Positions 7,501 through 47,162 of a DNA stretch of 59,441 nt are shown piece by piece. The translations under genes were made by a program, and so were the position numbers. Position 1 is the first letter of the stretch. Each line of letters opens with the position of its first letter. The DNA is from Patescibacteria group bacterium (GTDB lineage Bacteria; Patescibacteriota; Patescibacteriia; UBA9570; JAHJKD01), in assembly GCA_043798935.1 (NCBI GenBank), contig JAZDOC010000010.1, forward strand, positions 1 to 59,441. The letters run 5' to 3'. Below the pieces are notes generated by a model. The model was not told where the DNA came from and searched no databases. It saw only the letters and a program-made list of their open reading frames with translations.

Positions 7501-7608
7501 AGCTGTCGCTTCATCAGCATTTTTATCAAGTGGTGATGCTGCTTGATCAGAAACACGCTCGGTCCGCTCTTGTTGGTCTTCTAATTGACTTATATTTTTT
7601 TTAGTCAT
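4567..7608 (-). CDS. Fusion of a class I SAM methyltransferase (PRMT/COG4076-like), a helical linker and a radical SAM domain (TIGR01210/RaSEA-like)
   Basis: Methyltransferase motifs VVEAGAGTGIL, VYAIE, DVIISENMYTGLFVEPQ, GGRIIP. Radical SAM motifs GCEYARCANC, TPGSFLND, IEARLEF, IAIGLESSND...ISKG, AYSIIKP.LLSE..AIKD. Confidence 0.8.
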   Translation of the reverse strand: MTKKNISQLEDQQERTERVSDQAASPLDKNADEATAACAVQEVLERQEPQSIETMTPEQRRDYLSDLLYNTPFSEAVDEMGSIFLKVMEQVDWGDDQEEMTSHGRWGLSTEDARRCFFDTVRTEKFQQALKETIRSQDVVTQANIGPGDTVVEAGAGTGILAMMAVACGAKKVYAIEINRKTVKACNAFVEYCGFADTVEILEGDATTMQLPEQVDVIISENMYTGLFVEPQMQVVNNLRKYLKRGGRIIPQTFRSFIELATVSDMNTRSAARNEMSGEVGIASSRAQFDVVVFEQDTELTRQAVVILRADKSITINAVNISSIIELTPGVIIESNDCDFLGQDEIIQLQQPVDLRAGEEYEVSINFEAGARIEDIRIDIRSAKKLRLDKAITAQEREKEKINRATIESHISSLTADMQSFDPEKTLLISQQLAAVATLIHESRIGGLFELYELAQYNDRLSELHAQFLEVHDSFPEQAEMVLREYDKVMESENTYREIEKIFYDTIKTIRALYPENGQIDVKQIQIRSSECASKLQKCAEVLFNFEIGGIFRLDEFYSYVQKLQVYHAALDKIFTGQGILKPKAYVGIMANLEKQLRDHAANLKGVPELLAGESDVMSFQEYNELAMKMTKLYKVYLEKRKNNRETAVNRKPEKKDLHKPIDTEFASTQGGQRYMIEFRGKKGCEYARCANCCFFFEGSTDEEVTAQHIEKQFEYALKHDQLGVQEGEPLKWANPDVNDLYKIDILTPGSFLNDAEMPPVARTIIFEKISKLPFTTVMIEARLEFINVEEIKRLQSILRPDQKIQIAIGLESSNDLVREIAISKGYTWDDFSQKVEVLAGLGVDVQAYSIIKPALLSEAVAIKDSVQTGRDLAVLAESVRNKTGNQDFELTLKLEQAFIQEGGFLDFLHQEGEYDVPWTFSTAEIVRLLCAEGIHEKLNIQVGSSNDYPPPSGVAHNRKLDGSSCNDSTLRLNQALQKFNVDHDVEQFELEVASIAESFPDSYETWLKAKAA

Positions 7609-17503: not shown

Positions 17504-17968
17504 TTATCGAGTGACGTTGATTACTTCGCTTAGTTCTGGCTCGCAAGAACCAATAGTGATGTGGTTGTTAGTGGTGAATGTCATGTAGTAATCAGTATCC
17601 GTTGTTGTGCCAGCATCTGGATCAGTAGGCATAACATCAAAATATTTTGGCGACAATGAAGCACCTAAATTAACGCATACACCATCAGTTGGAGCAACAG
17701 CTGTACAAGTACAACCGCTAGCACCAGTACCAATAACTCTGGTTTCACCTGCCACGATACCGGTTGGATATGTACCGGCATTATCAACAATGTATTGTTG
17801 TGTACCTTCTAAAATTGAAGATACATCACTCCATCTTTGAGAATTTCTAGCTTCAGCAAATCTTGTAGCTGGATCAATAGCCACAAATGCCACGGCTGCT
17901 AAAATAGCAATCACCGCGATTACTATCAATAGCTCAACCAGTGTGAAGCCTTTATGATTTTTTTTCAT
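17504..17968 (-). CDS. Type IV pilin (probable major pilin)
   Basis: Class III signal KG|FTLVELLIVIAVIAIL; Cys-containing head. Confidence 0.9.
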   Translation of the reverse strand: MKKNHKGFTLVELLIVIAVIAILAAVAFVAIDPATRFAEARNSQRWSDVSSILEGTQQYIVDNAGTYPTGIVAGETRVIGTGASGCTCTAVAPTDGVCVNLGASLSPKYFDVMPTDPDAGTTTDTDYYMTFTTNNHITIGSCEPELSEVINVTR

Positions 17969-17986
17969 AATTGCTTTTTATAATTA

Positions 17987-19054
17987 TTATTTAATAAAAT
18001 TAATATTATTTTGCCAAGAATTATCATCTATATGACGTAAGGCTAAACCTAAAACATTAGCAAAAAGTAATCCTTGTTTTTTAATTATAGCATAATTGCC
18101 TATTTTGGTAAAGGGATTGCCAATTTCTAATTTAATCTTCAAATTAGCAGTTAGATATTCAGGCAATCCATTTAAAAAAGCCGAACCACCAACTAGACAA
18201 CCGAAATTTATTTGTTTTTTTGTTTTATCTTCAAAATAACTCATGCTTTTTTTAATTTCGGGTAAAATTTCTTGTAAATGAGATTGAATAATTAATAATA
18301 GTTCTCCCTGATTTTTTTTATAATCAAGGCCATTTGTTATTTTTAATTTTTCAGCTTCAGTAAAAGAAATTTTTAATTTTTCCGAGATTGCTTGAGTGAA
18401 AGTATGGCCGGCAACCGGGACATTGTGTGTTGAATACAGCCCTAATCCATAAAACACACTAATATTTGATGTGCGCGCGCCAATATCTAAAAGTAGAACT
18501 CCTTCATTAGAATTTATTTTATCTATGACGGCTCGAGCCGTGGCAATGGATTCTATTTCCATGGATGATATTCGAATATTCAGTTTTTTGGCTAATTCTT
18601 CATAGCCATTATAAATTTCCCGATCAACGGCTGCTACAAAGATTGTTTGTTCTTCATCATTTTTTTCCAAAACTTGCCAGGCATTAACCGTGGAATTGTA
18701 ATCAAATGGCATTATTTCTGGTATTTGATTGGCAATTGCTTCTGTAATTTCACTATCTTTTAGATCTAAAGGCAAATTAATAGTAGCGGTATATACTTGA
18801 CTATCAGGTAAAGATATAGAAACGTCTTTGGTTTTAATGGCTTTGGGTTTAGCGGTAGCTAGCACCTCATCGACATTAGAAGCTAATTTGGATAAATTAA
18901 GTATTTTTCCATTTTCAACAATTCCGCTTTCCATTTTAACGCGCGAGTAAGACTTAATGTTTTTTTTACCAAAATTCTGTTCCAACTCCATAGCTTCAAT
19001 GGAATAATCTGAGATATCCAGACCAAATATTTTTTTTGTAAAAATGCTAAACAT
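17987..19054 (-). CDS. pilM: Type IV pilus assembly protein PilM
   Basis: FGLDISD, LLDIGARTS, AGHTFT...AEKLK, LVGGSA, LGLALR actin-like motifs. Confidence 0.9.
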   Translation of the reverse strand: MFSIFTKKIFGLDISDYSIEAMELEQNFGKKNIKSYSRVKMESGIVENGKILNLSKLASNVDEVLATAKPKAIKTKDVSISLPDSQVYTATINLPLDLKDSEITEAIANQIPEIMPFDYNSTVNAWQVLEKNDEEQTIFVAAVDREIYNGYEELAKKLNIRISSMEIESIATARAVIDKINSNEGVLLLDIGARTSNISVFYGLGLYSTHNVPVAGHTFTQAISEKLKISFTEAEKLKITNGLDYKKNQGELLLIIQSHLQEILPEIKKSMSYFEDKTKKQINFGCLVGGSAFLNGLPEYLTANLKIKLEIGNPFTKIGNYAIIKKQGLLFANVLGLALRHIDDNSWQNNINFIK

Positions 19055-19074
19055 ATTAATTATATTAAGTTATA

Positions 19075-19500
19075 TTAAATGCTAAAATCACCAACTTGCT
19101 CCCACGAAGAAACGCTTAAATCGTCTCCGGTGTTCAATTCAACTTCAATTAAACTATAGTAGTCTCCCACATTACCTGTAACTTGTAAAAAACATGCATC
19201 CCCTTCTAAATTACACTCGCCTCCATCATCAGCCACGGCCTGTATTGTACATGATCCTTGGCTAAAAGTCATACTGGTTGGGGGCGTTTGTTTTCTTTTT
19301 AAACGTATCAAGCCTTCTTCAGTACAGGCATCAGCCGTAATAAAGGCTTGCTGAGATTCTACTCCAGAAAGGCCCATTTGCATTTCATTGACCGCGTTTA
19401 AGCTAACTGTAATGCCAATAATTACACAGACTGCCAATATCATTAATACCGATATTAAAGCCACGTAGCCTTTTTGATTTTTTATAAATATTTTTATCAT
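19075..19500 (-). CDS. Minor pilin, PilX-like
   Basis: KG|YVALISVL prepilin signal lacking Glu5; QAFITADACTEEG. Confidence 0.8.
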   Translation of the reverse strand: MIKIFIKNQKGYVALISVLMILAVCVIIGITVSLNAVNEMQMGLSGVESQQAFITADACTEEGLIRLKRKQTPPTSMTFSQGSCTIQAVADDGGECNLEGDACFLQVTGNVGDYYSLIEVELNTGDDLSVSSWEQVGDFSI

Positions 19501-20030
19501 GGTTGTCGAAACATTACAGTGTCATTTAAGGTTATATCCCAATCAAATTCTTGCCAATTATTTGGATTATTAAAACTAACTTGGAATTCAATTTTTAAAC
19601 CGCTTTGATTTGTGCTGTTTTGGATCTCGAAAAAAGTTAAATTCTGCACAGTTATTAAATCGTTGGTTAATGTTTGCTCTGTTCCGGTAGCACCTATGCG
19701 TTCAGTAAGCTGACCGTCGATTACCTGCCAATATACATCATCAGCACTGTCGTTTTTATCTAAATGAAGCAGACCACCGCTCACTAAATTTGTGTCCAAA
19801 GCTGATTCAGCATTAATGTTTCTGGCGCTACGAATTTTTTGACTCATTTTTTCCAAGGCAAAACGAGCGTTTTGTTGAACTTCGGCCATGGTGTCGGCTT
19901 TGGTTTGGGCGGAAATAACCCGCTGGCTAAAACTCATAATGGCTACTAAAAAAACCGAGACGATTGCAATATAAACAATTGTTTCAATTAATGTAAATCC
20001 GGATAGATAATGGCGTTTATGTTTATTCAT
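19497..20030 (-). CDS. Minor pilin, PilW-like
   Basis: SG|FTLIETIVYIAI; NARFALEKM..IRSA. Confidence 0.85.
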   Translation of the reverse strand: MNKHKRHYLSGFTLIETIVYIAIVSVFLVAIMSFSQRVISAQTKADTMAEVQQNARFALEKMSQKIRSARNINAESALDTNLVSGGLLHLDKNDSADDVYWQVIDGQLTERIGATGTEQTLTNDLITVQNLTFFEIQNSTNQSGLKIEFQVSFNNPNNWQEFDWDITLNDTVMFRQP

Positions 20031-20031
20031 A

Positions 20032-22824
20032 TCAGTAATAATTTAAACTTACATTATAAAGAATGGGCGTACTGCTACCGTCACCAGCTAAATCAACTCT
20101 GTATTGAGCCCAAGTATTATTTAAATTATCGGCTATATTCAACAAACTAGGTTCGCTAATATCTTGCCACGAAGCACTGGCGAGACCACTAAAATCAGTA
20201 GCCGTTCTAATTTTAAATGTAGTACTACAAGTACTACTATCACAACTATCATCAGCTTCCCAGTTAATAATATTAAAATTTTGAGTGGCATTAAAAGCTG
20301 AAGAAATTAAATAGCCATCTGTTTCATAATTACCACTAACTGCTTTACCATTTACTGAAAAGCCATCTTCAAAAACCACAAACGCTCCAACCTCAGTGGT
20401 ATGGTTTCTTTCGCGATCAGTATATTGATCTTCTTCATTATGCCAACTAATATTTTTTGGCAAAGACACTGAATTACAGCGAACTAGCCAGCCGCCATCG
20501 CCACCACGCATGGTTTGTTGCATACCCACAAAAACCGGCGCAGTAAAAGTAGTGTAGTTTCCGGCCGTATAGCAACCATCATCATGGCCACGAATATTTT
20601 CAGGTGTAATTCTGGTTCTAAATGTAGTGCTGCCTAAAGAACCGGTAATTACATTTTCAAAAACTATATATCCGATAATTTCTGCACCATGAGAATAAGA
20701 AGTGCTTACTTGCGAAGCATTTAAACCCATTTGAAAACCGCTACTGGCCGGACCATAACCGGTACTGCCATTTCTGGAAAGCCAAGTAGTAATCCAACTA
20801 GTGTCATTATCAGTCATCACCTGGCTTAAAACCAAAGGAGCCGTATATCTTAAATCATAACCCATGGTATCATAATTCCATCTGCCGGATCGCCCGAGCG
20901 TTGATGTGTCGTATCGATGTGCTTCAATATAAGTTCCGTCTGGCAGAATCCAGCTTCCTTCTTCAACAACAATATAATCCATACTGGCTGAAACTGTATA
21001 ATCTGTTGGCGTAAAACTATCAGTTGGAAATTCAATTCTGGCTTGAAAACCAGAAGCGCCGGCGTTTCTGATGCGTACAGATCCCGGAGAATCAGTATTT
21101 ACTGTTTCCCAATATGTGCCAGCTACTACTGGGCTGGTGTAAGTGTTTTCTAAATCAATATCTGTCCAATCTTGAGTAATGGTCGCTGTGCCGGCTTCCA
21201 TGGTAATGGTATCAGGATTAAAATTCATTTCGATATTATCGAGCGTTGGTTGGCCAACTCCATCACTTTCAAAAAAAGCACGGAATTTTATTTGTGAATC
21301 ATCATCAACTGGAAAATATTTAATATAAGTGTTCACATCAGTTGCACTGTTAGCCTGGTTAAGGTCAGAGGTGCTTACCCATGTATTTGAAGTGGTATTG
21401 TAATAAAACCAAGTACTACCGTTATCATTTGATAATTGATAGTAAATCGCAGTGCCCGATGGCTTAGTGGCTGTTTCAGTAAAATCTAAAATCATGCCCA
21501 GACTTTCCGGATTCCAGGTACCACTATCGTTAACTTCTACATAAGGCTTATCAGTTGCATAAGAGCTTTCAGTCCATTGTAAATCAACATTATCAATATC
21601 TACTGTAAAGGGACCTTGTTTCTTTCCGTTTTTGTAATCGATATACAATGCAATTTTTAAATAATAATTTCCGGCGGTTGCTAATTCAGCGGTTAGATCG
21701 CTAATAGTTAATGTTTGCCAGGAATCGCTTCCGGTAATATCAACGCTAGTTATCGCATGGGCTAATAATGGAGTTCCAGATACTGAATCTAATGTAACAA
21801 AAAGTATTAGCTCATCAGGATCTCTGACTAAATAATCCGAACACTCCCATTGAAAAGTTAAACTAGCACTATCGGGGTTATCTTCAGAAATGGTAATTTC
21901 TTGTTCCCAATAATCGGTAATAATTGTATTGTTGTCATTAGGGAAAGATATATCAATATAATAATTATCATCGTAACCACCGCTTATTTTATTCCAAGTA
22001 CCATAGCCATTACCATTACCCCAATAATCAGGTTCACTGCCAGTGCCGGCTCTAAAATCTTGATTTGGATTTTCTGTTATAGTGTCAGTTAATATTAATT
22101 TAGCTTCACCGTCAGCTACTTGTATTTTATCTTCATCTGATAAAGTATAATCAGTATCGGTGCTAAAATCCCAGGTATAGCTATTGTCGACAATAATTTC
22201 CGGCAAAGAAACCTGCCCGCTGACTGATGTATTTAAATTTCCATCATCACTACTGTATTTAGTTTCATCAGACCACTCGCTTTGACCACTACCGCCAGAC
22301 CAATCTGTTTGCTCAAAGTCGTTTCCTTCCCAGGCAGTTAAATATATTTCTGAGCTAATAGAAGTTTCAATGCCGTCTTCCACTTCCCACACGATAGTGG
22401 TTGTAGCCTTTCGTGAATAAGGGTCGTTAGTTTCCGTGCCCATATCTCCGGTAGCATCTCGCGCTATATCTTCAATTACAATAGTGCGGTTGATAAATGG
22501 ACCGCTCCCGTCTGGATCATCCAGCGTTAGTGATAGCTCCCATTTAGTTTCAGCTTCATTATAATTTAATCCATAAGTGCCGGCTGATAAATAATTAAAA
22601 GCTTCAAGTGAAACAGCGCGTAAGGCTTCATTACTTTCTTCCAAGTAAGCTTTGGCTTGGGATAATTTCTCGGCGCGTAAATTTGAGCTTAGCGATCCTA
22701 AAACCATAGAGATAATTCCAGCCGCAAAAATTGAAAACAAAGCCATGGCTAACGCTAGCTCGACTAAAGAATATCCGGCCTCATGATTAACTTTAATATT
22801 GAATTTCGATTGACCCTTCATCAT
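20032..22824 (-). CDS. Large pilin-adhesin (prepilin N-terminus plus extracellular beta-rich domains)
   Basis: AG|YSLVELALAMALF class III signal followed by an acidic Ser/Thr/Asp-rich body of about 750 aa. Confidence 0.85.
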   Translation of the reverse strand: MMKGQSKFNIKVNHEAGYSLVELALAMALFSIFAAGIISMVLGSLSSNLRAEKLSQAKAYLEESNEALRAVSLEAFNYLSAGTYGLNYNEAETKWELSLTLDDPDGSGPFINRTIVIEDIARDATGDMGTETNDPYSRKATTTIVWEVEDGIETSISSEIYLTAWEGNDFEQTDWSGGSGQSEWSDETKYSSDDGNLNTSVSGQVSLPEIIVDNSYTWDFSTDTDYTLSDEDKIQVADGEAKLILTDTITENPNQDFRAGTGSEPDYWGNGNGYGTWNKISGGYDDNYYIDISFPNDNNTIITDYWEQEITISEDNPDSASLTFQWECSDYLVRDPDELILFVTLDSVSGTPLLAHAITSVDITGSDSWQTLTISDLTAELATAGNYYLKIALYIDYKNGKKQGPFTVDIDNVDLQWTESSYATDKPYVEVNDSGTWNPESLGMILDFTETATKPSGTAIYYQLSNDNGSTWFYYNTTSNTWVSTSDLNQANSATDVNTYIKYFPVDDDSQIKFRAFFESDGVGQPTLDNIEMNFNPDTITMEAGTATITQDWTDIDLENTYTSPVVAGTYWETVNTDSPGSVRIRNAGASGFQARIEFPTDSFTPTDYTVSASMDYIVVEEGSWILPDGTYIEAHRYDTSTLGRSGRWNYDTMGYDLRYTAPLVLSQVMTDNDTSWITTWLSRNGSTGYGPASSGFQMGLNASQVSTSYSHGAEIIGYIVFENVITGSLGSTTFRTRITPENIRGHDDGCYTAGNYTTFTAPVFVGMQQTMRGGDGGWLVRCNSVSLPKNISWHNEEDQYTDRERNHTTEVGAFVVFEDGFSVNGKAVSGNYETDGYLISSAFNATQNFNIINWEADDSCDSSTCSTTFKIRTATDFSGLASASWQDISEPSLLNIADNLNNTWAQYRVDLAGDGSSTPILYNVSLNYY

Positions 22825-23230
22825 TTATATTTATTTGTTTTTGTTCGTTGATGCTTGTAGCTGTAATAGTAATTGTATTAGCCGTGGTCTTGCCAGATAA
22901 TTTTGAAAAAATAATATCACTCCCGCTAATGACCGAATTAGCTGGCAAAGTATAAACTTCATATTCGGTAGCCACGCCAGACGGATCTTCAATAATCGCA
23001 TAATATGTGCTATGCCAAGCCACACCCCAAGAAACATTATTTGTACTGGTAATAGCTTTGTTTTGAGCGCGACGTAAATTACCAACCACTTCATCGGTCA
23101 GAGTGCTTAATTGTTGTTGTGATAAATAACTGCTCATGAATGGTATTGTAATCGAAGCCATAAAAGAAATTATAGCCATGACAACTATTATTTCTACTAA
23201 TGTAAAACCTGATCGAGATGATAAGCGCAT
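22793..23230 (-). CDS. Minor pilin, FimT/GspH-like (start reassigned from 23311 to the ATG at 23230)
   Basis: MRLSSRSG|FTLVEIIVVMAII; LRRAQNKA; the shorter start removes the overlap with pilC. Confidence 0.85.
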   Translation of the reverse strand: MRLSSRSGFTLVEIIVVMAIISFMASITIPFMSSYLSQQQLSTLTDEVVGNLRRAQNKAITSTNNVSWGVAWHSTYYAIIEDPSGVATEYEVYTLPANSVISGSDIIFSKLSGKTTANTITITATSINEQKQININDEGSIEIQY

Positions 23231-23240
23231 CGTGTTTATA

Positions 23241-24461
23241 TTAATGGTTCGGCGATACTGAGCCGGTAATTTTATAAATTGGAGTAATAATAGACAATCC
23301 CACAAAACCAATAATTAAACCAATACAAATTAATAATAATGGCTCTATAATAGATGAAATATTTTTTGTCACGTTATCTACTTCTTCTTCATAAAAATCA
23401 GCTAGGTACAATAATATTTCTTCTAAACGACCTGATTTTTCCCCCACGTTGATCATGCGAGTAACCATGGCCGGAAATAAATTACTATGTTTCGTTAACG
23501 CGCTATTTATGGATTTTCCTTTTTCCACTTCTTTTAATACATCGCGTAATGCTTTTTTATAAACTTCGTTATCTACAATATTAATAATGGTTTCAGCCGA
23601 TTCGTTTATGGTTAAACCACTTTTTAATAAAACGTACAAATTTCGATTAAATCGGGCAACGTTATATATTTTGGCTATGCGGCCAACTAGCGGTGTTTCC
23701 AAAATCATAAAGTGCCAAATAGGTTTAATGAATTTAACATGAACCAATAAATATAATGATATTATTATTACCGCTAAACCGATAATCACATAAATGCCAT
23801 CATTTTGCATTAAATTTGAAAACCACAGCAGTGCTCTGGTGCTAGCCGGCAGTTCAGTTTTTAATGATGCAAACAGACGGGATAAACGCGGTAAAACAAA
23901 GACTGATAAAACAACCCCCAAAGATAATGTAGACAACAAAACAAAAATTGGATAAATTAAAGCAGCTTTAATTTTACGTTTTAACATTATTTCTTTCTCT
24001 ATTTGAATAGATAGATGTTGTAAATTTTCTTCCAAGTTGCCGGCTGTTTCACCAACTTTAATTACATCAATATAAAAATCTTTAAATTGGTGCGGAAAAT
24101 ATCGTAAGCTGTCGGCCAGTGCTTTTCCTTCTTGAACATAAGTTAATATTTTATTTAAAATGCGTCTGAATTTTCCTGTGGCTTGAGCGGCCGTAATTTC
24201 TAAAGCTTCGTTAACCGGTAATCCGGCACGGATCATTACTGAAAGATTTTTTACAAACAATGCCACGTCCAACCCTTTTACCCAACCAATACTGAAATTT
24301 AAATTTGTAATTACTGTAGGTTGTTTGGTTTGCTCTTGCAAACTAATTAACGACATATTCATGTCGGTAAGTTTTTTACGAGCTTCAGTTTTAGTGGAAG
24401 CAATTATAAAATCCGTAATCGTGCTACCACCCTTTTGTTTGGCAACGTATTTAAATTTCAT
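23241..24461 (-). CDS. pilC: Type IV pilus platform protein PilC (T2SS F family)
   Basis: LSVMIRAGLP, VGETAGNLE, ALIYP, VGEKSGRLE, IIEP. Confidence 0.95.
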   Translation of the reverse strand: MKFKYVAKQKGGSTITDFIIASTKTEARKKLTDMNMSLISLQEQTKQPTVITNLNFSIGWVKGLDVALFVKNLSVMIRAGLPVNEALEITAAQATGKFRRILNKILTYVQEGKALADSLRYFPHQFKDFYIDVIKVGETAGNLEENLQHLSIQIEKEIMLKRKIKAALIYPIFVLLSTLSLGVVLSVFVLPRLSRLFASLKTELPASTRALLWFSNLMQNDGIYVIIGLAVIIISLYLLVHVKFIKPIWHFMILETPLVGRIAKIYNVARFNRNLYVLLKSGLTINESAETIINIVDNEVYKKALRDVLKEVEKGKSINSALTKHSNLFPAMVTRMINVGEKSGRLEEILLYLADFYEEEVDNVTKNISSIIEPLLLICIGLIIGFVGLSIITPIYKITGSVSPNH

Positions 24462-24493
24462 AAAAATTAAATATAATAATAATAATAATTAAT

Positions 24494-26185
24494 TTAATCG
24501 GCGGTAACGCGCAACACTTCTTCAATAGTGGTCATACCTTGCATGGCTTTAGCCACACCGTCTTGCATCATGGTGGTCATGCCCAGTTCGACGGCTTTGG
24601 CTTTTATTTGGCCAGCGTCGGCTTTATTAACTATTAATTTTCTCATAGCTTCATTAATTGTTAATAATTCAAATACACCGATTCGTCCTTTATAACCGGT
24701 ATTATTACAAGCCGGACATCCTTTACCTTTATAAAAACGTAATTTTTTAATTTTCTTAACATCCTGGCCAGTAACCGCTTCTAAATTTACCTGTTCTTTT
24801 AATTCGTCTAGAACTTTGCCTTCATAAATATCACTCATTAAACACTGCGTACAAACCTTTCTAACCAATCTTTGAGCAATGGCAATGTTAACGGTTGAAG
24901 CTATTAAAAAAGGTTCAATTTTCATATCTATTAAACGCGGTAATGTGGTGGCCGCGTCGTTAGTGTGCAGTGTAGATAAAACTAAATGTCCGGTTAAAGC
25001 AGCGTTCACTGAAATGCCGGCAGTTTCTTGATCGCGGATTTCGCCGACCATAATAATATCCGGATCCTGACGCACAATGGAACGAAGACCAGCCGCAAAA
25101 GTAAGATTGGTTTTAGCATTAACCTGAATTTGATTAACACCCATCATGTCGTATTCCACCGGATCTTCAATAGTAGAAATATTTACATCGCGCTTATTTA
25201 ATATTTTTAAAATTGCATACAATGTAGTTGTTTTACCCGAACCAGTTGGGCCAGTTACCAGTATCATGCCATGTGGTGAATTTATTGCTTTTCTAATTTT
25301 AGAAACATCATTTTCAGAAAAACCCAAATCATCCAAAGAAAACTGGCGATTTTTTTCGGATAATAATCTCATTACAACTTTTTCACCTTCAGTAATGGGC
25401 ACAATAGAAACTCTGATATCTAAATCTTCTTCTTCCAGTGGTAAAGTAATTTTACCGTCTTGAGCCGCGCGATGTTCATCAGTTCTTAATCTGGCCAATA
25501 TTTTAATACGACTAATAATAGGTTCTAATAGTTCTTTAGGAATAGTGGCGGCATCGTAAAGCATGCCATCTAAACGAAAACGAATGGCAATATTTTTTTC
25601 CGTGGGCTCGATATGAATATCCGATGCTAAATTTTCGTATCCGTATCTGATGAAAGCATCTACAATTTTAATAATTGAAACATCTTCACTGGAAGTTTTT
25701 TTTGATTTACTGTTTTTAACATTTTGTTGTAAAATATCTTTAAATTCTTCGGATAAATCGCGATGATATTTAATTAAAGCCTGTCTAAGATCGCGCTCGG
25801 TCACAAAATACGGATTAACCTTATAGCCGGATTTCTTTTCCACTAAACGAATTATTTCTAGATTAGACGGATCAGCCATGGCCAAACTAATGCCTTTTTT
25901 ATTGATATCAAATATTATTATTTGTTGTTTTTTAGCCATGATTTCCGGAACAATATCAAGACCTTGATCGGGAATGGCTTGTTTTTTAAGATCCACATAT
26001 TCAAAGCCCAAGGCATCGGCAATTAACTGACCTAAATTGGAATCTGGAATATAATCTTTTTCAACCAGCACCTCGGAAAATGATCTTTTTTCTTTTTTAG
26101 CAATGGCGCATGCTTCTTCGACATCTTTTACCTCAACAACTTCAGTATCAATTAATATTTCTTTAAGTTTTGAATCACTAATCAT
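24494..26185 (-). CDS. pilB: Type IV pilus extension ATPase PilB (GspE family)
   Basis: ASDIHIEP, GPTGSGKTTT, TIEDPVEY, RQDPDIIMVGEIRD, TGHLVLSTLHTND, tetracysteine motif. Confidence 0.96.
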   Translation of the reverse strand: MISDSKLKEILIDTEVVEVKDVEEACAIAKKEKRSFSEVLVEKDYIPDSNLGQLIADALGFEYVDLKKQAIPDQGLDIVPEIMAKKQQIIIFDINKKGISLAMADPSNLEIIRLVEKKSGYKVNPYFVTERDLRQALIKYHRDLSEEFKDILQQNVKNSKSKKTSSEDVSIIKIVDAFIRYGYENLASDIHIEPTEKNIAIRFRLDGMLYDAATIPKELLEPIISRIKILARLRTDEHRAAQDGKITLPLEEEDLDIRVSIVPITEGEKVVMRLLSEKNRQFSLDDLGFSENDVSKIRKAINSPHGMILVTGPTGSGKTTTLYAILKILNKRDVNISTIEDPVEYDMMGVNQIQVNAKTNLTFAAGLRSIVRQDPDIIMVGEIRDQETAGISVNAALTGHLVLSTLHTNDAATTLPRLIDMKIEPFLIASTVNIAIAQRLVRKVCTQCLMSDIYEGKVLDELKEQVNLEAVTGQDVKKIKKLRFYKGKGCPACNNTGYKGRIGVFELLTINEAMRKLIVNKADAGQIKAKAVELGMTTMMQDGVAKAMQGMTTIEEVLRVTAD

Positions 26186-38958: not shown

Positions 38959-40110
38959 TTATTGTGACTTTAACTGAATTACAGCTATTTCAGATTTAGT
39001 GCCAATTCTAAGCGGTGGGCCCCATGTGCCAGTTCCACTAGAAATATATATTTGAAAATCACCCTGTTGGTGTAGGCCGTAATCATAATTTTTAAAAATC
39101 TTTTTCGTTAATAAATTAAACGGAAAAAATTGCCCGGCATGAGTATGCCCTGACAATTGTAAATCAATGCCCATCTCTATGGCTTTATCAAAAATCACAT
39201 CGGGTTGCCAATAAATATTTGCTTGATGACTAACAGTACTAGTAGCGTTTAGATTTATATCAGTCGGCATGTGTTGCAAAAAAACACTGGGCTGATTTAA
39301 ATCTAAATTTTTAATATCTGCATTGTTATTATAAGCCAAGCCCACTAATTGCAATCCGTTAATATTAACTACTTCATTATTTAAAATTTTTATATTTGCT
39401 TTTTTTATAATATTTAACGGCTCTTGCATGCCCAAATATTCTTCATGATTTCCGGCCACAAAATATATTCCCTGTTTAGCTTTAAAACTACTTAGGCCAA
39501 AAATAAATGGCTCGAGCTTACCGTCCATACCGTCAAACATATCACCGGTAATAACTATTACATCAGGATTCAGTTCATTAACTTGTTTCACAATTTTATT
39601 TAAAAATGCCGGCCGATGAATAGCACCTAAATGCACATCTGATAATTGGACAATTGTTTTATCTTGCCAGCTGTCCGGAAGATTTTTAATTCTAACATCG
39701 ATTTTATTTAACTGCGGATTAAACGTCTCATAAATTCCATAAAAACTGATGATCAAACAAATTCCATATACAATCGTATTTACAATCACCATGTTTAAAT
39801 CCAAATTTAATAATTTCCCAACAAAATATATGACCCAGATTAAAACCAAGCTCATTAATACATAAAAGAACAAGCCCATCCAATAAGCACCGAGAAAATA
39901 CAAACTACGAGTAATAATATTATCATGAATTTTTAACATAATTACTGTAATAACAAAACTTAAAGCTAAAATAATTAATACAGCCAAAATAGACGTTTTA
40001 AACGGACCAGATAAAATATTAAAAAACTTAATTATAGAATAATAAATCCAATAATTGCCTAAAATCAATGAAATTATGGTTATAATAAAAATAAATATTA
40101 ATTTAAGCAT
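38959..40110 (-). CDS. Membrane-bound metallophosphoesterase (YkuE-like)
   Basis: N-terminal TMs; LSDVH, TGD, GNHE, H, SGHTHAGQ, GPPLR. Confidence 0.92.
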   Translation of the reverse strand: MLKLIFIFIITIISLILGNYWIYYSIIKFFNILSGPFKTSILAVLIILALSFVITVIMLKIHDNIITRSLYFLGAYWMGLFFYVLMSLVLIWVIYFVGKLLNLDLNMVIVNTIVYGICLIISFYGIYETFNPQLNKIDVRIKNLPDSWQDKTIVQLSDVHLGAIHRPAFLNKIVKQVNELNPDVIVITGDMFDGMDGKLEPFIFGLSSFKAKQGIYFVAGNHEEYLGMQEPLNIIKKANIKILNNEVVNINGLQLVGLAYNNNADIKNLDLNQPSVFLQHMPTDINLNATSTVSHQANIYWQPDVIFDKAIEMGIDLQLSGHTHAGQFFPFNLLTKKIFKNYDYGLHQQGDFQIYISSGTGTWGPPLRIGTKSEIAVIQLKSQ

Positions 40111-40175
40111 AGATTCTGTTGATCGTTAATCTTGTGCCAGCTAGAGTGATAATAAATTTTAATAACCCAGGCAAG

Positions 40176-40237
40176 CCCTTCGACAATGCTCAGGACGAGC
40201 TAGGTCATAACTCATTAATAATCAGCATGTTATGACC
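40176..40237. repeat. REP-like unit plus an inverted repeat in a divergent intergenic region
   Basis: CCCTTCGACAATGCTCAGGAC (40176-40196); GGTCATAAC...GTTATGACC (40203-40237). Confidence 0.5.
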
Positions 40238-40302
40238 GACCTTGTGTCAGTCAGCCGTGTCTTATATAATGATTATAACATAAATATTTAATTGCAAAAT
40301 AT

Positions 40303-41427
40303 ATGACAAGCGTTATTTATCCTTTATCAGCTGATCCGATCCATAACGGACACATTAATAATATTAAGCGTCTGACAAAAAATTTTAACCATGTTTTTGT
40401 GGCCATTGGCAAGAACTACGAAAAAAAACCCAGATATTTATTCAGTGATGGCGAAAAATTAATGATTACTAAAAAAGCGCTGGCGAGACTGAATCGCGAA
40501 GAATCGAAAATAACGAAGAACACGAAAATTGAGAACGCAAAAAAAGCGAAAATTTCAGTGGAGTTATTTGATGGATTATTAGTGCATTATGCCAATAAAA
40601 AAGGTACTAATATTATCGTTCGCGGATCGAGAAACAGTATGGATTTTGAGAGCGAGCAAGTAATGGCTGAATTCAATAAAAATTACGGACTGGACACATT
40701 TATTATTCCAGCACCGCAAAAAACTTTTACTCTAAGCTCGACCATGATAAAAGCTATTGTAGAAAATGGTGGCTTAGTTCATGAATATACACCGCCCGTT
40801 ATTAAACAAGCGCTGGAAGAAAAAATTCTAGGCTTAACACTCGTCGGCGTTACCGGCAATACGGGCAGTGGTAAAACTTCGCTTTGTAAAGAACTAGCTC
40901 AATTAAATACAGACATTGATTACATTGAAGTTGATAAATTAATTAAAGAGCTTTATCAGGCAGACTTAAGTGTAAAACATAAAGTTAAACAAGCTTTCGG
41001 CGCCAATATTTATCATAACAATAATATCGACCGCAAAAAATTAGCCAAAATTATTTTTAAAGATACGGGTGAAAGATTAAAGCTGGTAGAAATCTTGCGT
41101 CAGCCGTTTAAAATTGCGCTGGAGAAAAAAATTAAAAGTCTAACCGGCATTGTTTTAATTGATTGCGCCTATTTGGTTGAATACGGGTTATTGCCAATGA
41201 TTAATTATAATGTTGTGCTTCTTCAATGTTCGGCCAAAACAAAATTAAAACGCAATCAAAAAGCCAATCAAATTATACCCGTGCAATTAACTGAAAATGA
41301 ATTAAAAAAACAAATTATAAGCGAACAAAAAAAATCCGGCCAAGATAATTTACTGATTATAAACACAGATAAACAAATTAACTATTCATTAATAGTCCAA
41401 AAAATACGTGGCTGGAAAATTGTTTAG
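40303..41427 (+). CDS. Bifunctional phosphopantetheine adenylyltransferase / dephospho-CoA kinase fusion (CoaD-CoaE)
   Basis: N-terminal YPLSADPIHNGH, FDGLLV.YA, IVRG.R...DFE.E, LSST.IK; C-terminal VGVTGNTGSGKT, IDRKKLAKIIF. Confidence 0.85.
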   Translation: MTSVIYPLSADPIHNGHINNIKRLTKNFNHVFVAIGKNYEKKPRYLFSDGEKLMITKKALARLNREESKITKNTKIENAKKAKISVELFDGLLVHYANKKGTNIIVRGSRNSMDFESEQVMAEFNKNYGLDTFIIPAPQKTFTLSSTMIKAIVENGGLVHEYTPPVIKQALEEKILGLTLVGVTGNTGSGKTSLCKELAQLNTDIDYIEVDKLIKELYQADLSVKHKVKQAFGANIYHNNNIDRKKLAKIIFKDTGERLKLVEILRQPFKIALEKKIKSLTGIVLIDCAYLVEYGLLPMINYNVVLLQCSAKTKLKRNQKANQIIPVQLTENELKKQIISEQKKSGQDNLLIINTDKQINYSLIVQKIRGWKIV

Positions 41428-41456
41428 CTGTAAATTTATATTCATGAGAATATGTT

Positions 41457-42221
41457 TTACAATACTAATGCACCGAGACAACCGGCATAACTTGAATTTT
41501 TAATAAAAGCGATATTACAAAAATATTTTTTTAATAATTTCTTCAAACAATCGTTATTGTTTAATACTGATCCGATAAAAATAATCGGCTCTTTATTTTT
41601 TTTATACAAAACCATGTCTTTATATACAGTTATGGCTAATAAATTCATAAGGCCCGCGGCTAAATCATTTTTATTTGTTTTTTTATTTACAAATCCTAAA
41701 TTAGAAACAATTAAATCATTAAAATAAATATCGATTTTTTTGTGATTACCTTTGTTAGCACATTCAACTAAATGGTTAAAGTTTTTAAAGCCTAGTTTCT
41801 CGGATAATCCTAATATAGTCCCGCCAGCAATAGAACTGCCGATCGGATATTTATAAATGCGAAGGCGCGAATCCGGATTCGTGCCTGACCGTTTTACTGC
41901 GGTATATGAAATGCCAGTGCCGATAGAAACTAAAATAAAATTTTGCGGTAATTTTCCTTCCAGTGCACACAAACCAATTACTTGTAATTTTATTTCGCGA
42001 TCAATTAAATTTTGTTTATTTATTTTTTTAATTTCTAAAAATTTTAATTCTTGAGGAAGCTTACCAACACCAGTAATATTTGCCGTGGTAATTTCATTCT
42101 GTTTTAATATTATAGAAATTTGGGAAATTGAACAATCAGCTGAACTTAAAAAGTGCAGCTTTTTGTTTTTTTCATAAGCTATTTTTATTAAAGTTAATCC
42201 TAGATCAATACCGGCAAGCAT
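41457..42221 (-). CDS. coaW: Type II pantothenate kinase (CoaW/Fumble family)
   Basis: GIDLGLTLIK, ITGVG, VSIGTGIS, GSSIAGGTILGL, IFIGS, YAGCLGA. Confidence 0.8.
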   Translation of the reverse strand: MLAGIDLGLTLIKIAYEKNKKLHFLSSADCSISQISIILKQNEITTANITGVGKLPQELKFLEIKKINKQNLIDREIKLQVIGLCALEGKLPQNFILVSIGTGISYTAVKRSGTNPDSRLRIYKYPIGSSIAGGTILGLSEKLGFKNFNHLVECANKGNHKKIDIYFNDLIVSNLGFVNKKTNKNDLAAGLMNLLAITVYKDMVLYKKNKEPIIFIGSVLNNNDCLKKLLKKYFCNIAFIKNSSYAGCLGALVL

Positions 42222-42235
42222 ATAAAATATTTCGA

Positions 42236-42373
42236 TTATTTATTTTCAATAATTTTCTTTAATTTAAAAACGCTTTTACCGGAAACTTTCATTTTGGGTT
42301 TTTTAGTTTTTTTACTAGCCCGGCGTTTAATTTTATTTTGAGCTTTTATTTCAGCGCTGTTTAAATTAGACAT
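42236..42373 (-). CDS. 45-aa highly basic small protein (not in the ORF track)
   Basis: MSNLNSAEIKAQNKIKRRASKKTKKPKMKVSGKSVFKLKKIIENK*; fills the gap between zupT and coaW with 7- and 14-nt spacers. Confidence 0.6.
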   Translation of the reverse strand: MSNLNSAEIKAQNKIKRRASKKTKKPKMKVSGKSVFKLKKIIENK

Positions 42374-42380
42374 GTCTTCA

Positions 42381-43145
42381 TTATAACAAATACAAGCTAA
42401 CTGCCATAATGGCCATGCCGGTAAAAATGCCAGCTACGGAAATATGGCTTTTATTGCCTTTAAAAGATAACGGCAATAATTCATCGAAGCTAATAAATAT
42501 CATAATGCCGGCTACAAAAGACAATGAAAGATCTAGAACTTCTTGATTTAAAAACGGCATTAGCACCAATAAACCAATGGCGGCGCCGATCGGCTCGGCA
42601 ATACCGGCAAAAAAAGAAGCTAATACAGCCTTAGTGCGATTTTTAGTGGCACAATAAATCGGCATGGCCACGGCAATGCCTTCGGGAATATTATGAATGG
42701 CAATAGCTACGGCTAATGATAAACCAAGTGAAATGTTTTCCAGCGATCCAACTGCCACGGCAATACCTTCGGGAAAATTATGAATAGCAATGCCTAAGGC
42801 CAATAAAACTCCGGCTGTAAATAATTTTTTGTCTTTACTGCTTAAATTATAACAGACTTTTTCAGCAATATATTCATGTGGTATAAAATAGTCAATTAAA
42901 AAAATAAAAGCAATACCGCCAAAAAAAGCTAGATTAGCTTTATTAAACCCAATATCATTAATAGCTCCGCCTAAAAGTTCGACTAATGAAACATAAATCA
43001 TTACTCCGGCCGACATGCCTAGAAAATAATTTAATTTATTTTCACTATCTTTTTTAAATGAAAAAATAATGATACTGCCCAGTACGGTACACAAACCGGC
43101 AAAAGTAGATAATAATAATGGAATCCAAATCTGGTGGAAGTTCAC
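42381..43145 (-). CDS. zupT: ZIP-family zinc transporter ZupT
   Basis: SAGVMIYVS, IAIHNFPEG, IAIHNIPEG, AEPIGA, DELLP. Confidence 0.93.
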   Translation of the reverse strand: MNFHQIWIPLLLSTFAGLCTVLGSIIIFSFKKDSENKLNYFLGMSAGVMIYVSLVELLGGAINDIGFNKANLAFFGGIAFIFLIDYFIPHEYIAEKVCYNLSSKDKKLFTAGVLLALGIAIHNFPEGIAVAVGSLENISLGLSLAVAIAIHNIPEGIAVAMPIYCATKNRTKAVLASFFAGIAEPIGAAIGLLVLMPFLNQEVLDLSLSFVAGIMIFISFDELLPLSFKGNKSHISVAGIFTGMAIMAVSLYLL

Positions 43146-43149
43146 TGAA

Positions 43150-43434
43150 TTAACTTTTGTTTAGTTTAATTAAAGAAATTAAATTGGCAATTAACCAAAT
43201 TAAAATAACCGGGACTAACATGGCAATTCCCAGCCAAGTACCACTGGTAATCAAGCCGTCAGTTTGAGTTTCAAAAAACTCTCCGCCTTCATAGCCTAAA
43301 ACATGATCGACTAATATCATAATAGTCGCTCCCCACAGCATTAAGCATAAAAAGCCTAATTTATATTTATTTTTTAGAAAATAAAATAATAAAGTTACGA
43401 TAATGGCCGCAATTAGCGTTGTTATGAACCACAT
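43150..43434 (-). CDS. Small 3-TM membrane protein, paralog of the neighbouring gene
   Basis: LMLWGATIMILVDH motif. Confidence 0.75.
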   Translation of the reverse strand: MWFITTLIAAIIVTLLFYFLKNKYKLGFLCLMLWGATIMILVDHVLGYEGGEFFETQTDGLITSGTWLGIAMLVPVILIWLIANLISLIKLNKS

Positions 43435-43733
43435 ATTTTTTTATTTGCGATTAATACCAAAACTGACCAAAATGCAATAATTGCCAGAGTCATTGCTCCG
43501 CCAACCGTTACAATTTCTTTTAGCATAGTAATTGTATCAGCCGGATTTTTCATGGCAGTTAAAAACGGCGGATAAAATACGATTTCGCCATGAGCAATAT
43601 GCTCAACGGCAAGCATTAATACTCCACCCCAAAACATACTAATAAGCCAATCTATGTGATATTTCGGATCAATTCTTTTTTTAAAGCCAGTGACAACGAT
43701 TGCGGCCACGGCTGGCGCAGTAAAACAAGCCAT
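43422..43733 (-). CDS. Small 3-TM membrane protein
   Basis: MACF N-terminus, SMFWGGVLMLAVEHIAHGE, PPFLTAM. Confidence 0.75.
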   Translation of the reverse strand: MACFTAPAVAAIVVTGFKKRIDPKYHIDWLISMFWGGVLMLAVEHIAHGEIVFYPPFLTAMKNPADTITMLKEIVTVGGAMTLAIIAFWSVLVLIANKKICGS

Positions 43734-46598: not shown

Positions 46599-47162
46599 CT
46601 ACAAAACTTTTCGCGGTAGAAAATAAATATAAATAGCGCTACTAAAACAAAGCATGGCCATGATAATGAATATTATGTCGAAACTAAAATAATATACGAT
46701 TAACCCGCCCAGTGCGGAACCAAAGGCGACCGTAAAATAATTCATTGCTTCCCACGCACTCCAGCTATAAGCTTCGCGATGGCGTATTAAGTGTTTTGAA
46801 TAAATGGCATTAAAAGCCGGCGAATATAAAGCTTCGGCAAAACCAATTAATGCCTGCACAATAAATATAAACATTACCGAATCCACAAAAATATATAAAA
46901 AGAAGCCGATGCCCATTACAAAATATCCAAAAACAATAATCAGTTCATTTTCTTTAATTTTATCTGCATAATTACCGGCCAATAATGTTGTGATTCCCGC
47001 AACTACGGCAAAAATTCCTCCAGCAAAACTTGCGTCTAATAAATCCCCACCGATTTGTTCTACAAATAAAGCATATATTGGTCCTAACATAGCGCCAGCT
47101 ATTAAAATCAAACTGTTGGTAATAAGTAATATTTTTAAAGATTGGTTTAGAAAATTCTTCAT
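46599..47162 (-). CDS. Half-size (about 6 TM) MFS transporter
   Basis: Motif A-like AGNYADKI; 187 aa; flanked closely by unrelated genes. Confidence 0.8.
   Translation of the reverse strand: MKNFLNQSLKILLITNSLILIAGAMLGPIYALFVEQIGGDLLDASFAGGIFAVVAGITTLLAGNYADKIKENELIIVFGYFVMGIGFFLYIFVDSVMFIFIVQALIGFAEALYSPAFNAIYSKHLIRHREAYSWSAWEAMNYFTVAFGSALGGLIVYYFSFDIIFIIMAMLCFSSAIYIYFLPRKVL

Follow-up and report, generated by a model that had tools for sequence, protein, structure and literature searches.

The window analyzed here, a contig of 59,441 nucleotides (JAZDOC010000010.1; G000:C3), belongs to the genome of a Patescibacteria group bacterium (G000), which was assembled as 1,088,210 bases in 24 contigs and is 90.28% complete and 0.75% contaminated. 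It contains two convergent open reading frames (ORFs) assigned to coenzyme A (CoA) synthesis, namely a 374-residue protein in which a phosphopantetheine adenylyltransferase (PPAT, CoaD) is joined to a dephospho-CoA kinase (DPCK, CoaE), and a 254-residue relative of the type II pantothenate kinases (PanKs), the features of which are collected in Table 1. An earlier, sequence-only reading of the window had described one ORF joining an HxGH adenylyltransferase to a P-loop DPCK and converging on a Fumble-type kinase, and this description was borne out by the coordinates of both ORFs as well as by matches to TIGR01510, TIGR00152, and PF03630.

Table 1. Positions of the CoaD-CoaE fusion, the facing kinase, and their parts in the window
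Feature	Position	Strand	Basis or remark
CoaD-CoaE fusion	40303..41427	+	single 374-residue ORF, PPAT joined directly to DPCK
CoaD/PPAT domain, residues 4-174	40312..40824	+	TIGR01510; HNGH 14-17, SST 145-147
CoaD insertion, ~18 residues (about 63-80), window-specific	40489..40542	+	gaps in alignments
CoaE/DPCK domain, residues 180-360	40840..41382	+	TIGR00152, PF01121; Walker A G185-T192, D211
Short lid, residues about 311-327, R317 and Q328 kept	41233..41283	+	alignment
29-bp spacer, stop codon to stop codon	41428..41456	.	convergent ORFs
Divergent type II (Fumble/ASKHA) pantothenate/pantetheine kinase (predicted), 254 residues	41457..42221	-	Fumble match
Kinase insertion, 8 residues (114-121), window-specific	41859..41882	-	alignment
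Intergenic region, presumed promoter region	40111..40302	.	between the fusion and a divergently transcribed membrane metallophosphoesterase

The fusion protein and the facing kinase

As predicted from its sequence, the 374-residue protein is a bacterial-type CoaD fused to CoaE, and its two Pfam families are PF01467 and PF01121. The CoaD half reaches 105.9 bits against TIGR01510, a narrow margin over the curated equivalog cut-off of 103.3 bits, and it is followed by the CoaE half with no linker between them (junction KQALEEKILGLTLVGVTGNTGSGKT). Both CoaD signatures, the (T/H)xGH motif of nucleotidyltransferases and an SST-type motif near the C-terminus, are present, as H14-N-G16-H17 and S145-S146-T147, with H14, G16, H17, and S146 invariant among 24 homologues. 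The AlphaFold2 model of the fusion has a mean predicted local distance difference test (pLDDT) score of 89.4 and a predicted TM (pTM) score of 0.87, and its top Foldseek matches are bacterial PPATs; the CoaD half superimposes on the PPATs of E. coli, M. abscessus, and M. tuberculosis with TM scores by target of 0.93–0.94 and root-mean-square deviations of 1.2–1.4, and the best sequence match of the N-terminal half in the PDB is the PPAT of T. thermophilus (E 4e-22). The least confident stretch of the model (block pLDDT 74 and 55) is the insertion in the CoaD half, which corresponds to a gap in T. thermophilus PPAT and in most homologues.

The same two activities occur in the same order and in one chain in COASY, the DPCK half of which is homologous to the one described here; the mouse structure 2f6r aligns with residues 175–326, i.e., with the DPCK half only. 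However, the PPAT half of the window protein is a bacterial CoaD without a match to the PPAT part of COASY, and no eukaryotic-type PPAT domain lies N-terminal to its DPCK. The protein is therefore an independent fusion that falls outside the COASY family. The sequence-only reading had proposed such independence, and in this respect it stands; it has to be qualified in that the fusion was not born in this genome, being present in relatives of the same family, in a second family, in other Patescibacteria, and in metagenome-assembled genomes labelled as DPANN archaea.

The CoaE half, which exceeds the cut-offs of both TIGR00152 (72.7 versus 65.55 bits) and PF01121 (68.7 versus 27 bits), is modeled with block pLDDT values of 84–96. 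Four Walker A residues (G185, G188, G190, and K191) as well as D211, R317, and Q328 are invariant in the 24 fusion homologues. Mutagenesis of M. tuberculosis CoaE identified K14, D32, and R140 as critical (PMC3019153); these residues correspond to K191, D211, and R317 by way of alignments to the CoaE proteins of H. influenzae and E. coli, in which R317 pairs with R140 of H. influenzae. The sequence-only reading had noted a shortened lid and named inactivity of this half as a finding that would count against the pathway. The shortening is real, in that the lid is ~17–25 residues shorter after R317 than in the other fused proteins (DPANN and other members of the candidate phyla radiation, CPR) and no full-length lid segment is present, whereas its interpretation as a sign of inactivity was not upheld, since the counterparts of the critical residues are invariant and the same short form is found in the T. 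maritima DPCK 2grj. This entry is the best PDB sequence match of the CoaE half (E 2.9e-16), and as it aligns without a gap across the lid, the short lid appears to be a natural variant and not a product of decay, so that a full-length lid is no universal trait of the family. Unlike the protein described here, 2grj is a stand-alone protein of 192 residues, and its name as a DPCK is that given by its depositors.

The kinase matches the Pfam family Fumble (PF03630) at 52.7 bits against a gathering cut-off of 28.5, and its alignments to the two models of type II PanK, NF009842 (95.8 bits) and TIGR00555 (77.5 bits), span the full length; by these profile scores it is classed as a divergent member of the type II PanKs, not as an equivalog. 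Its AlphaFold2 model has a pLDDT of 95.4, and S. aureus type II PanK fills the first 12 rows of the Foldseek listing, with yeast CAB1 and human PANK1–3 coming next; the matches to the S. aureus structures reach E-values down to 2.6e-17 with TM scores of 0.71–0.78. With the S. aureus enzyme (2ews, 4nb4, and 6awg) the kinase shares the fold, the length class, a full-length alignment (E 1.1e-8), the ASKHA motifs, and the catalytic glutamate. It differs in its low identity (~23%), in its clade, in the lack of a ~12-residue loop after D164, and in having a lysine at the carboxylate-anchor column, where arginine predominates. The loop in question (about 165–170) lies between D164 and the "(I/V/T)xxN(F/L)" strand; it is missing from the clade of the window kinase and present in both the Woesearchaeota-related and the Staphylococcaceae-type kinase clades.

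An alignment of 59 kinase sequences shows no variation at D6, G8, E76, and G101 and a conservation of at least 90% at T102, G103, and S105. In a larger set of 160, E76 is kept in 12/12, 97/98, and 50/50 rows of three clades (159/160 in all) and D6 in 157/160. E76 presumably occupies the position of E138 of human PanK3. According to a recent preprint, E138 is the catalytic base of that enzyme (bioRxiv 10.64898/2026.01.22.701186). The column of the carboxylate-anchoring R207 of human PanK3, which was set by counting from S195 of that protein together with published passages, is occupied by K124 in the window kinase; the 12 members of its own clade have Lys (seven), Arg (three), His (one), and Pro (one) at this column, with a one-residue indel nearby in the alignment, and the Staphylococcaceae-type clade has Arg (37), His (12), and Phe (one). 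The 8-residue insertion (block pLDDT 78) sets the window kinase apart from the 11 further sequences of its clade and from nearly all other rows.

Pathway genes, distribution, and archaeal relatives

The sequence-only reading had seen no coaBC in the window and had proposed a genome-wide search. This search extended the negative result to the whole of G000, in which TIGR00521, PF04127, and PF02441 each gave no match at E ≤ 1; all three models detect coaBC in 14 of 14 control genomes. PF04127, the synthetase domain of coaBC, was furthermore found in none of 41 genomes (the source genome and 40 relatives), 30 of which are at least 90% complete and three of which are other carriers of the two genes. 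Type III PanK (PF03309), type I PanK (TIGR00554), and PanC, the pantoate ligase (PF02569), were each found in none of five genomes, and the fusion is the sole CoaD/CoaE match in G000. Pantetheine is reportedly accepted by PanKs of types I and II and not by those of type III (PMC8721197). The genotype of G000 thus comprises a PanK of a pantetheine-accepting type together with CoaD and CoaE, with CoaBC not found in an assembly that is 90.28% complete.

The gene content points to a need for CoA. G000:C17 encodes a 2-oxoacid:ferredoxin oxidoreductase (POR; alpha and beta subunits), followed by iron–sulfur and FAD subunits and a NiFe hydrogenase; the stretch G000:C17:3000–12091 also includes an EamA transporter, the small and large hydrogenase subunits, and 4Fe-4S and FAD/NAD subunits, and the cluster looks like a compact fermentative, hydrogen-evolving module. 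G000:C6 encodes a 678-residue Succ_CoA_lig protein of the size of an ADP-forming acyl-CoA synthetase, which is present in all five genomes of the family. AcpS and phosphotransacetylase (Pta) were found in none of five genomes, and no PF00583 acetyltransferase was found in G000.

The fusion is present in 9 of the 41 genomes, i.e., in G000, in three of the four other genomes of its family (f1), and in 5 of 12 genomes of family f4 from the same order, where identity to the window protein is 27–32%. The kinase is found in the same three f1 relatives and in none of the other genomes among the 41. In these relatives, the fusion and the kinase are convergent neighbors with a 29-nt overlap between their matched 3' ends (versus a 29-bp spacer in the window), and the kinase adjoins the fusion in all three f1 relatives having either gene. 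Identity to the window proteins is 57–61% for the fusion and 47–50% for the kinase, and since adjacency has persisted through this drift, the linkage is probably under selection. Additionally, six metagenomic pairs of fusion and kinase have identical longest-contig figures for both genes, which is consistent with shared contigs, though not proof of them.

An even sample of 401 Patescibacteria genomes was searched with the fusion and kinase profiles. Any match to the fusion profile was obtained in 25 genomes, five of them with an uninterrupted full-length protein; the sample also contained two further divergent fused ORFs of 340–342 residues and one fusion split over contig ends, and the kinase was present in five genomes. 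The fusion homologues are labelled "Patescibacteria group bacterium" in their source records. The database records name the fusion proteins only "pantetheine-phosphate adenylyltransferase", and because this name covers one function, pathway reconstructions based on names will miss the DPCK step. In two genomes of family f46 (G064 and G092; loci L040 and L041, reverse strand), CoaD and CoaE are separate and adjacent in the same frame with a single TAA between them, and the ATG of CoaE lies 1–3 codons past the TAA, an arrangement that is one stop-codon loss from a fusion. Both of these genomes have a type II PanK of the Staphylococcaceae-related clade elsewhere in the genome.

Archaeal occurrence was assessed in a scan that covered each prokaryote species with a single genome and located the fusion on four Patescibacteria contigs and on seven contigs with archaeal titles (Woesearchaeota, Pacearchaeota, Nanoarchaeia, and one Methanosarcinales archaeon). 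At 37–41% identity to that of the window, the archaeal-labelled fusions are nearer to it than are those of f4, a family of its own order. In a careful maximum-likelihood tree built from 375 columns of 43 full-length rows, the root of which is not fixed, the clade of the window has a support of 99/98, the clade with all seven archaeal-labelled loci 86/92, the joining of these two clades, with f4 and f35/f81 outside, 100/98, and f4 100/100. A single origin of the fusion is neither shown nor rejected by this tree, as the branch uniting unfused pairs with the fused forms of f35/f81 has a support of 57/75 only.

The sequence-only reading had also suggested phylogenies of each domain, and trees of the CoaD domain and of the kinase were built. 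Among stand-alone CoaDs, those nearest to the fusion (32–40% identity) belong to ordinary bacteria, for instance Verrucomicrobiales and Micrococcaceae, and in a quick tree of the CoaD domain most fused forms fall among the bacterial CoaDs. For the kinase, a profile search of 1.84 billion representatives returned 1466 relatives, including 81 with E ≤ 1e-30. In a FastTree tree of 160 rows, for which names are known for 20 representatives, the 12-row clade of the window (support 99) is sister to a 98-row clade, in which both members with checked names are Candidatus Woesearchaeota; the Staphylococcaceae kinases fall in another clade of 50 rows, together with the kinases of CPR family f46. By these trees, the fusion clade of the window is sister to the DPANN clade, a relationship echoed by the kinase, and the closest relatives of both proteins are found in tiny archaea. 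Transfer of the fusion from CPR to DPANN would be the simpler reading because the basal fused lineages are CPR, the unfixed root notwithstanding. No archaeal genome was found with both genes: G637 encodes the kinase but not the fusion, and no PanK lies within 4 kb of the fusion in the seven DPANN loci. In the class of the archaeal genome G041 (genomes G463–G639), 18 of 201 sampled genomes match the fusion profile, mostly through a stand-alone bacterial-type CoaD and in two cases through a full fusion.

Probable CoA salvage and its alternatives

CPR and DPANN organisms are believed to obtain cofactors from their hosts, and few of the molecules that cross the boundary are known. On balance, the two genes of the window probably act together in CoA salvage as a "pantetheine shunt", with pantetheine as the presumed substrate, its uptake and source likewise presumed, and two predicted activities of the fusion. 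The type II PanK homologue would phosphorylate imported pantetheine to 4'-phosphopantetheine, the CoaD half would adenylylate this intermediate to dephospho-CoA, and the CoaE half would phosphorylate the 3'-hydroxyl of dephospho-CoA to yield CoA; the dephospho-CoA is probably handed between the two sites of the single fused polypeptide. The CoA formed would serve a fermentative core in which POR makes acyl-CoA and the ADP-forming acyl-CoA synthetase converts it with gain of ATP, alongside the hydrogenase. Such a module, fed by pantetheine presumed to come from a host, had been proposed in the sequence-only reading, and the proposal is supported insofar as the three activities are encoded while coaBC (in G000, and PF04127 in the 41 genomes), PanC, and type I and III PanKs were not found. 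Its genotype had already been described for 91 gut strains (Rodionov et al. 2019, PMC6593275). If correct, the salvage reading offers a concrete, testable answer for one lineage, with pantetheine entering and CoA produced to feed a CoA-dependent, ATP-yielding fermentation, and it describes a cofactor-salvage gene common to two domains among organisms of similar lifestyle.

A number of observations weigh against pantetheine salvage by this gene pair. No pantetheine transporter was identified. The fusion and the kinase are convergent and hence not one operon, and a consensus scan of positions 39900–42500 gave 11 promoter-like sites (shuffle mean 13.9) and three terminator-like sites (shuffle mean 1.7), nothing above chance. 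The kinase lies below the equivalog cut-offs of both type II models (95.8 versus 234 bits for NF009842 and 77.5 versus 247.6 bits for TIGR00555), and with a basic residue mostly kept at the R207 column, its sequence would neither rule out pantothenate nor favor pantetheine. Type II and III PanKs were not found in the five f4 fusion genomes, the kinase was not found in the f35/f81 fusion carriers of the 401-genome sample, and it was also not found in five DPANN fusion genomes by Pfam or by its own profile, which detects the kinase in other searches; as so many carriers have no kinase, the fusion can apparently function where a PanK is missing, with imported 4'-phosphopantetheine as its presumed substrate. 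Given the 90.28% completeness of G000, non-detection does not equal absence; a hidden coaBC is unlikely in view of the negative result in all 41 genomes, yet a non-homologous replacement is possible. Nor is homology to CoaE a guarantee of DPCK activity, as illustrated by the T. kodakarensis homologues TK1334 and TK2192, which were without it (PMC6650551). Additionally, the use of CoA appears narrow and centered on fermentation, with AcpS, Pta, and PF00583 not found, and in G002, a genome of the family that is 75% complete, POR and the synthetase are present while neither salvage gene was found.

The carriers without a kinase bear directly on the main alternative, namely that the fusion uses imported 4'-phosphopantetheine, the kinase having an auxiliary or other role, such as an optional entry point or the phosphorylation of another small alcohol. 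We consider this rather unlikely. PanK-less carriers are indeed common (five in f4, five in DPANN, and those of f35/f81), mycoplasmas with PPAT and DPCK only have been discussed as scavengers of 4'-phosphopantetheine (PMC8721197), and the kinase is divergent and below the equivalog cut-offs. However, its adjacency to the fusion is kept in three relatives, with a 29-nt overlap of the 3' ends, despite a drift in identity to 47–61%; its catalytic residues are conserved, and its fold matches are led by pantothenate kinases.

The ordinary five-step pathway from pantothenate, with CoaBC encoded in the 10% of the genome missing from the assembly or with its role taken by an enzyme that escapes recognition, would be compatible with an assembly of 24 contigs that is 90.28% complete and with the basic K124 at the carboxylate-anchor column of the kinase; it is nevertheless improbable, as three independent coaBC models gave no match at E ≤ 1 with 14 of 14 controls detected, and as PF04127 is missing from all 41 genomes, 30 of them at least 90% complete and three of them other carriers of both genes. 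It is more than doubtful, and in our estimate highly improbable, that the CoaE half has degenerated by way of its short lid, leaving a protein with PPAT activity only and dephospho-CoA that is finished elsewhere or used as such. The lid is ~17–25 residues shorter than in the fused proteins of DPANN and other CPR, and certain CoaE homologues are inactive as DPCKs (PMC6650551); however, the same short form occurs in T. maritima 2grj, deposited as a dephospho-CoA kinase, K191, D211, R317, and Q328 are invariant, the half folds with block pLDDT values of 84–96, and no second CoaE was found in G000.

As for the salvage reading itself, its pathway logic is already known, and the fusion, the host range, and the cross-domain distribution are the new elements. 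The "pantetheine shunt" genotype, i.e., PanK, CoaD, and CoaE without CoaBC, was described in Bifidobacterium and Clostridiales, and pantetheine auxotrophy was proposed for the 91 gut strains (Rodionov et al. 2019, PMC6593275). In that survey, the gene-content logic and the predicted auxotrophy are the same as those considered here, and neither there nor here is a transporter named; its three genes are separate, however, and the kinase column of its table comprises CoaA, CoaX, and CoaW, whereas in the window the last two genes form a single ORF, the kinase belongs to type II as a divergent member, and the genome is an ultra-small one of Patescibacteria. The truncated CoA pathways of mycoplasmas are similar in their reduced genomes, in the retention of late steps only (PPAT and DPCK, or these with PanK, and no CoaBC), and in their salvage logic, but they differ in that their PanKs are of type III, which are not known to take pantetheine, and in that their genes are unfused (PMC8721197).

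Another prokaryotic fusion of the last two steps joins an archaeal PPAT to an arCOG04076-type DPCK in uncultured archaea (Shimosaka et al. 2019, PMC6650551). Its PPAT is of the archaeal/eukaryotic type and its DPCK is GTP-dependent and not homologous to CoaE, whereas the protein described here consists of CoaD and CoaE even in DPANN-labelled archaea. After COASY and the archaeal PPAT-DPCK, the fusion of the window is, so far as the sequences tell, a third, independent joining of the last two steps of CoA synthesis. A literature search, with most subscription journals outside it, returned no description of a bacterial CoaD-CoaE fusion or of CoA salvage in CPR or DPANN; the bacterial-type fusion, its spread over CPR families and DPANN, and the sister relationship between the window and DPANN clades were thus not found in print.

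An HD-superfamily partner of CoaD, and further genes of the window

A protein of ~230 residues of the HD superfamily, with the conserved motifs R..YH...H, HD..Y, and D..L..D.D, accompanies bacterial-type CoaD. It is encoded directly downstream of the CoaD-CoaE fusion in the DPANN loci L028:5145–5870, L033:5143–5841, and L029:5139–5825 (plus strand), and in one archaeal genome it forms the third domain (residues about 396–604) of a 604-residue CoaD-CoaE-HD ORF (L080:1438–3252). In one CPR genome it follows the CoaD domain inside a 374-residue ORF (L043:919–1455, minus strand), and in another it lies beside CoaD (L044:822–1337, minus strand); clusters of CoaD-HD and CoaD-CoaE-HD architectures are also present in the ESM Atlas. 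The protein matched no Pfam or NCBIfam family, its PDB profile matches are BH2835 (3dto) and Lin1889 (3b57), and it was not found in the genome of the window.

This HD protein is a candidate for an alternative "front end" of CoA salvage. Tentatively, and with more doubt than confidence, the fusion could be viewed as a mobile "CoA finishing" cassette common to CPR and DPANN, the two large radiations of ultra-small symbionts, and fed by interchangeable front-end enzymes, i.e., a Woesearchaeota-related type II kinase taking pantetheine in the family of the window and an HD hydrolase in other lineages. The hydrolase might then act on a donor taken from the host, for instance CoA or a holo-carrier protein, and set 4'-phosphopantetheine free. 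If true, the cassette would define how CPR and DPANN organisms obtain CoA.

The membrane metallophosphoesterase upstream of the fusion (38959–40110, minus strand) was considered as a PptH-like phosphopantetheinyl hydrolase, following a lead from the literature (PMC8557913), and was rejected, as the PDB search yielded Mre11 matches only. Its adjacency to the fusion is not kept in the three family relatives, and the PptH-like idea was dropped. On the other side, the kinase is separated from a transketolase by ORFs for a ZIP metal transporter and for two small membrane proteins of 93 and 102 residues without a family (42381–43733, minus strand); in the relative G004, a transketolase-sized ORF directly follows the kinase. 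A 186-residue ORF located 4.4 kb from the kinase (46599–47159, minus strand) matches the first half of the MFS_1 profile only and may be a truncated or split transporter gene. Farther away, a 1012-residue ORF (4567–7605, minus strand) has a methyltransferase domain at residues 150–249 as its sole recognised part. Additionally, positions 17504–26182 (minus strand) hold a type IV pilus-like cluster consisting of a prepilin with an N_methyl motif, PilM, a T2SSF platform protein, and a T2SSE ATPase, interspersed with four ORFs without a Pfam family, one of which comprises 929 residues.

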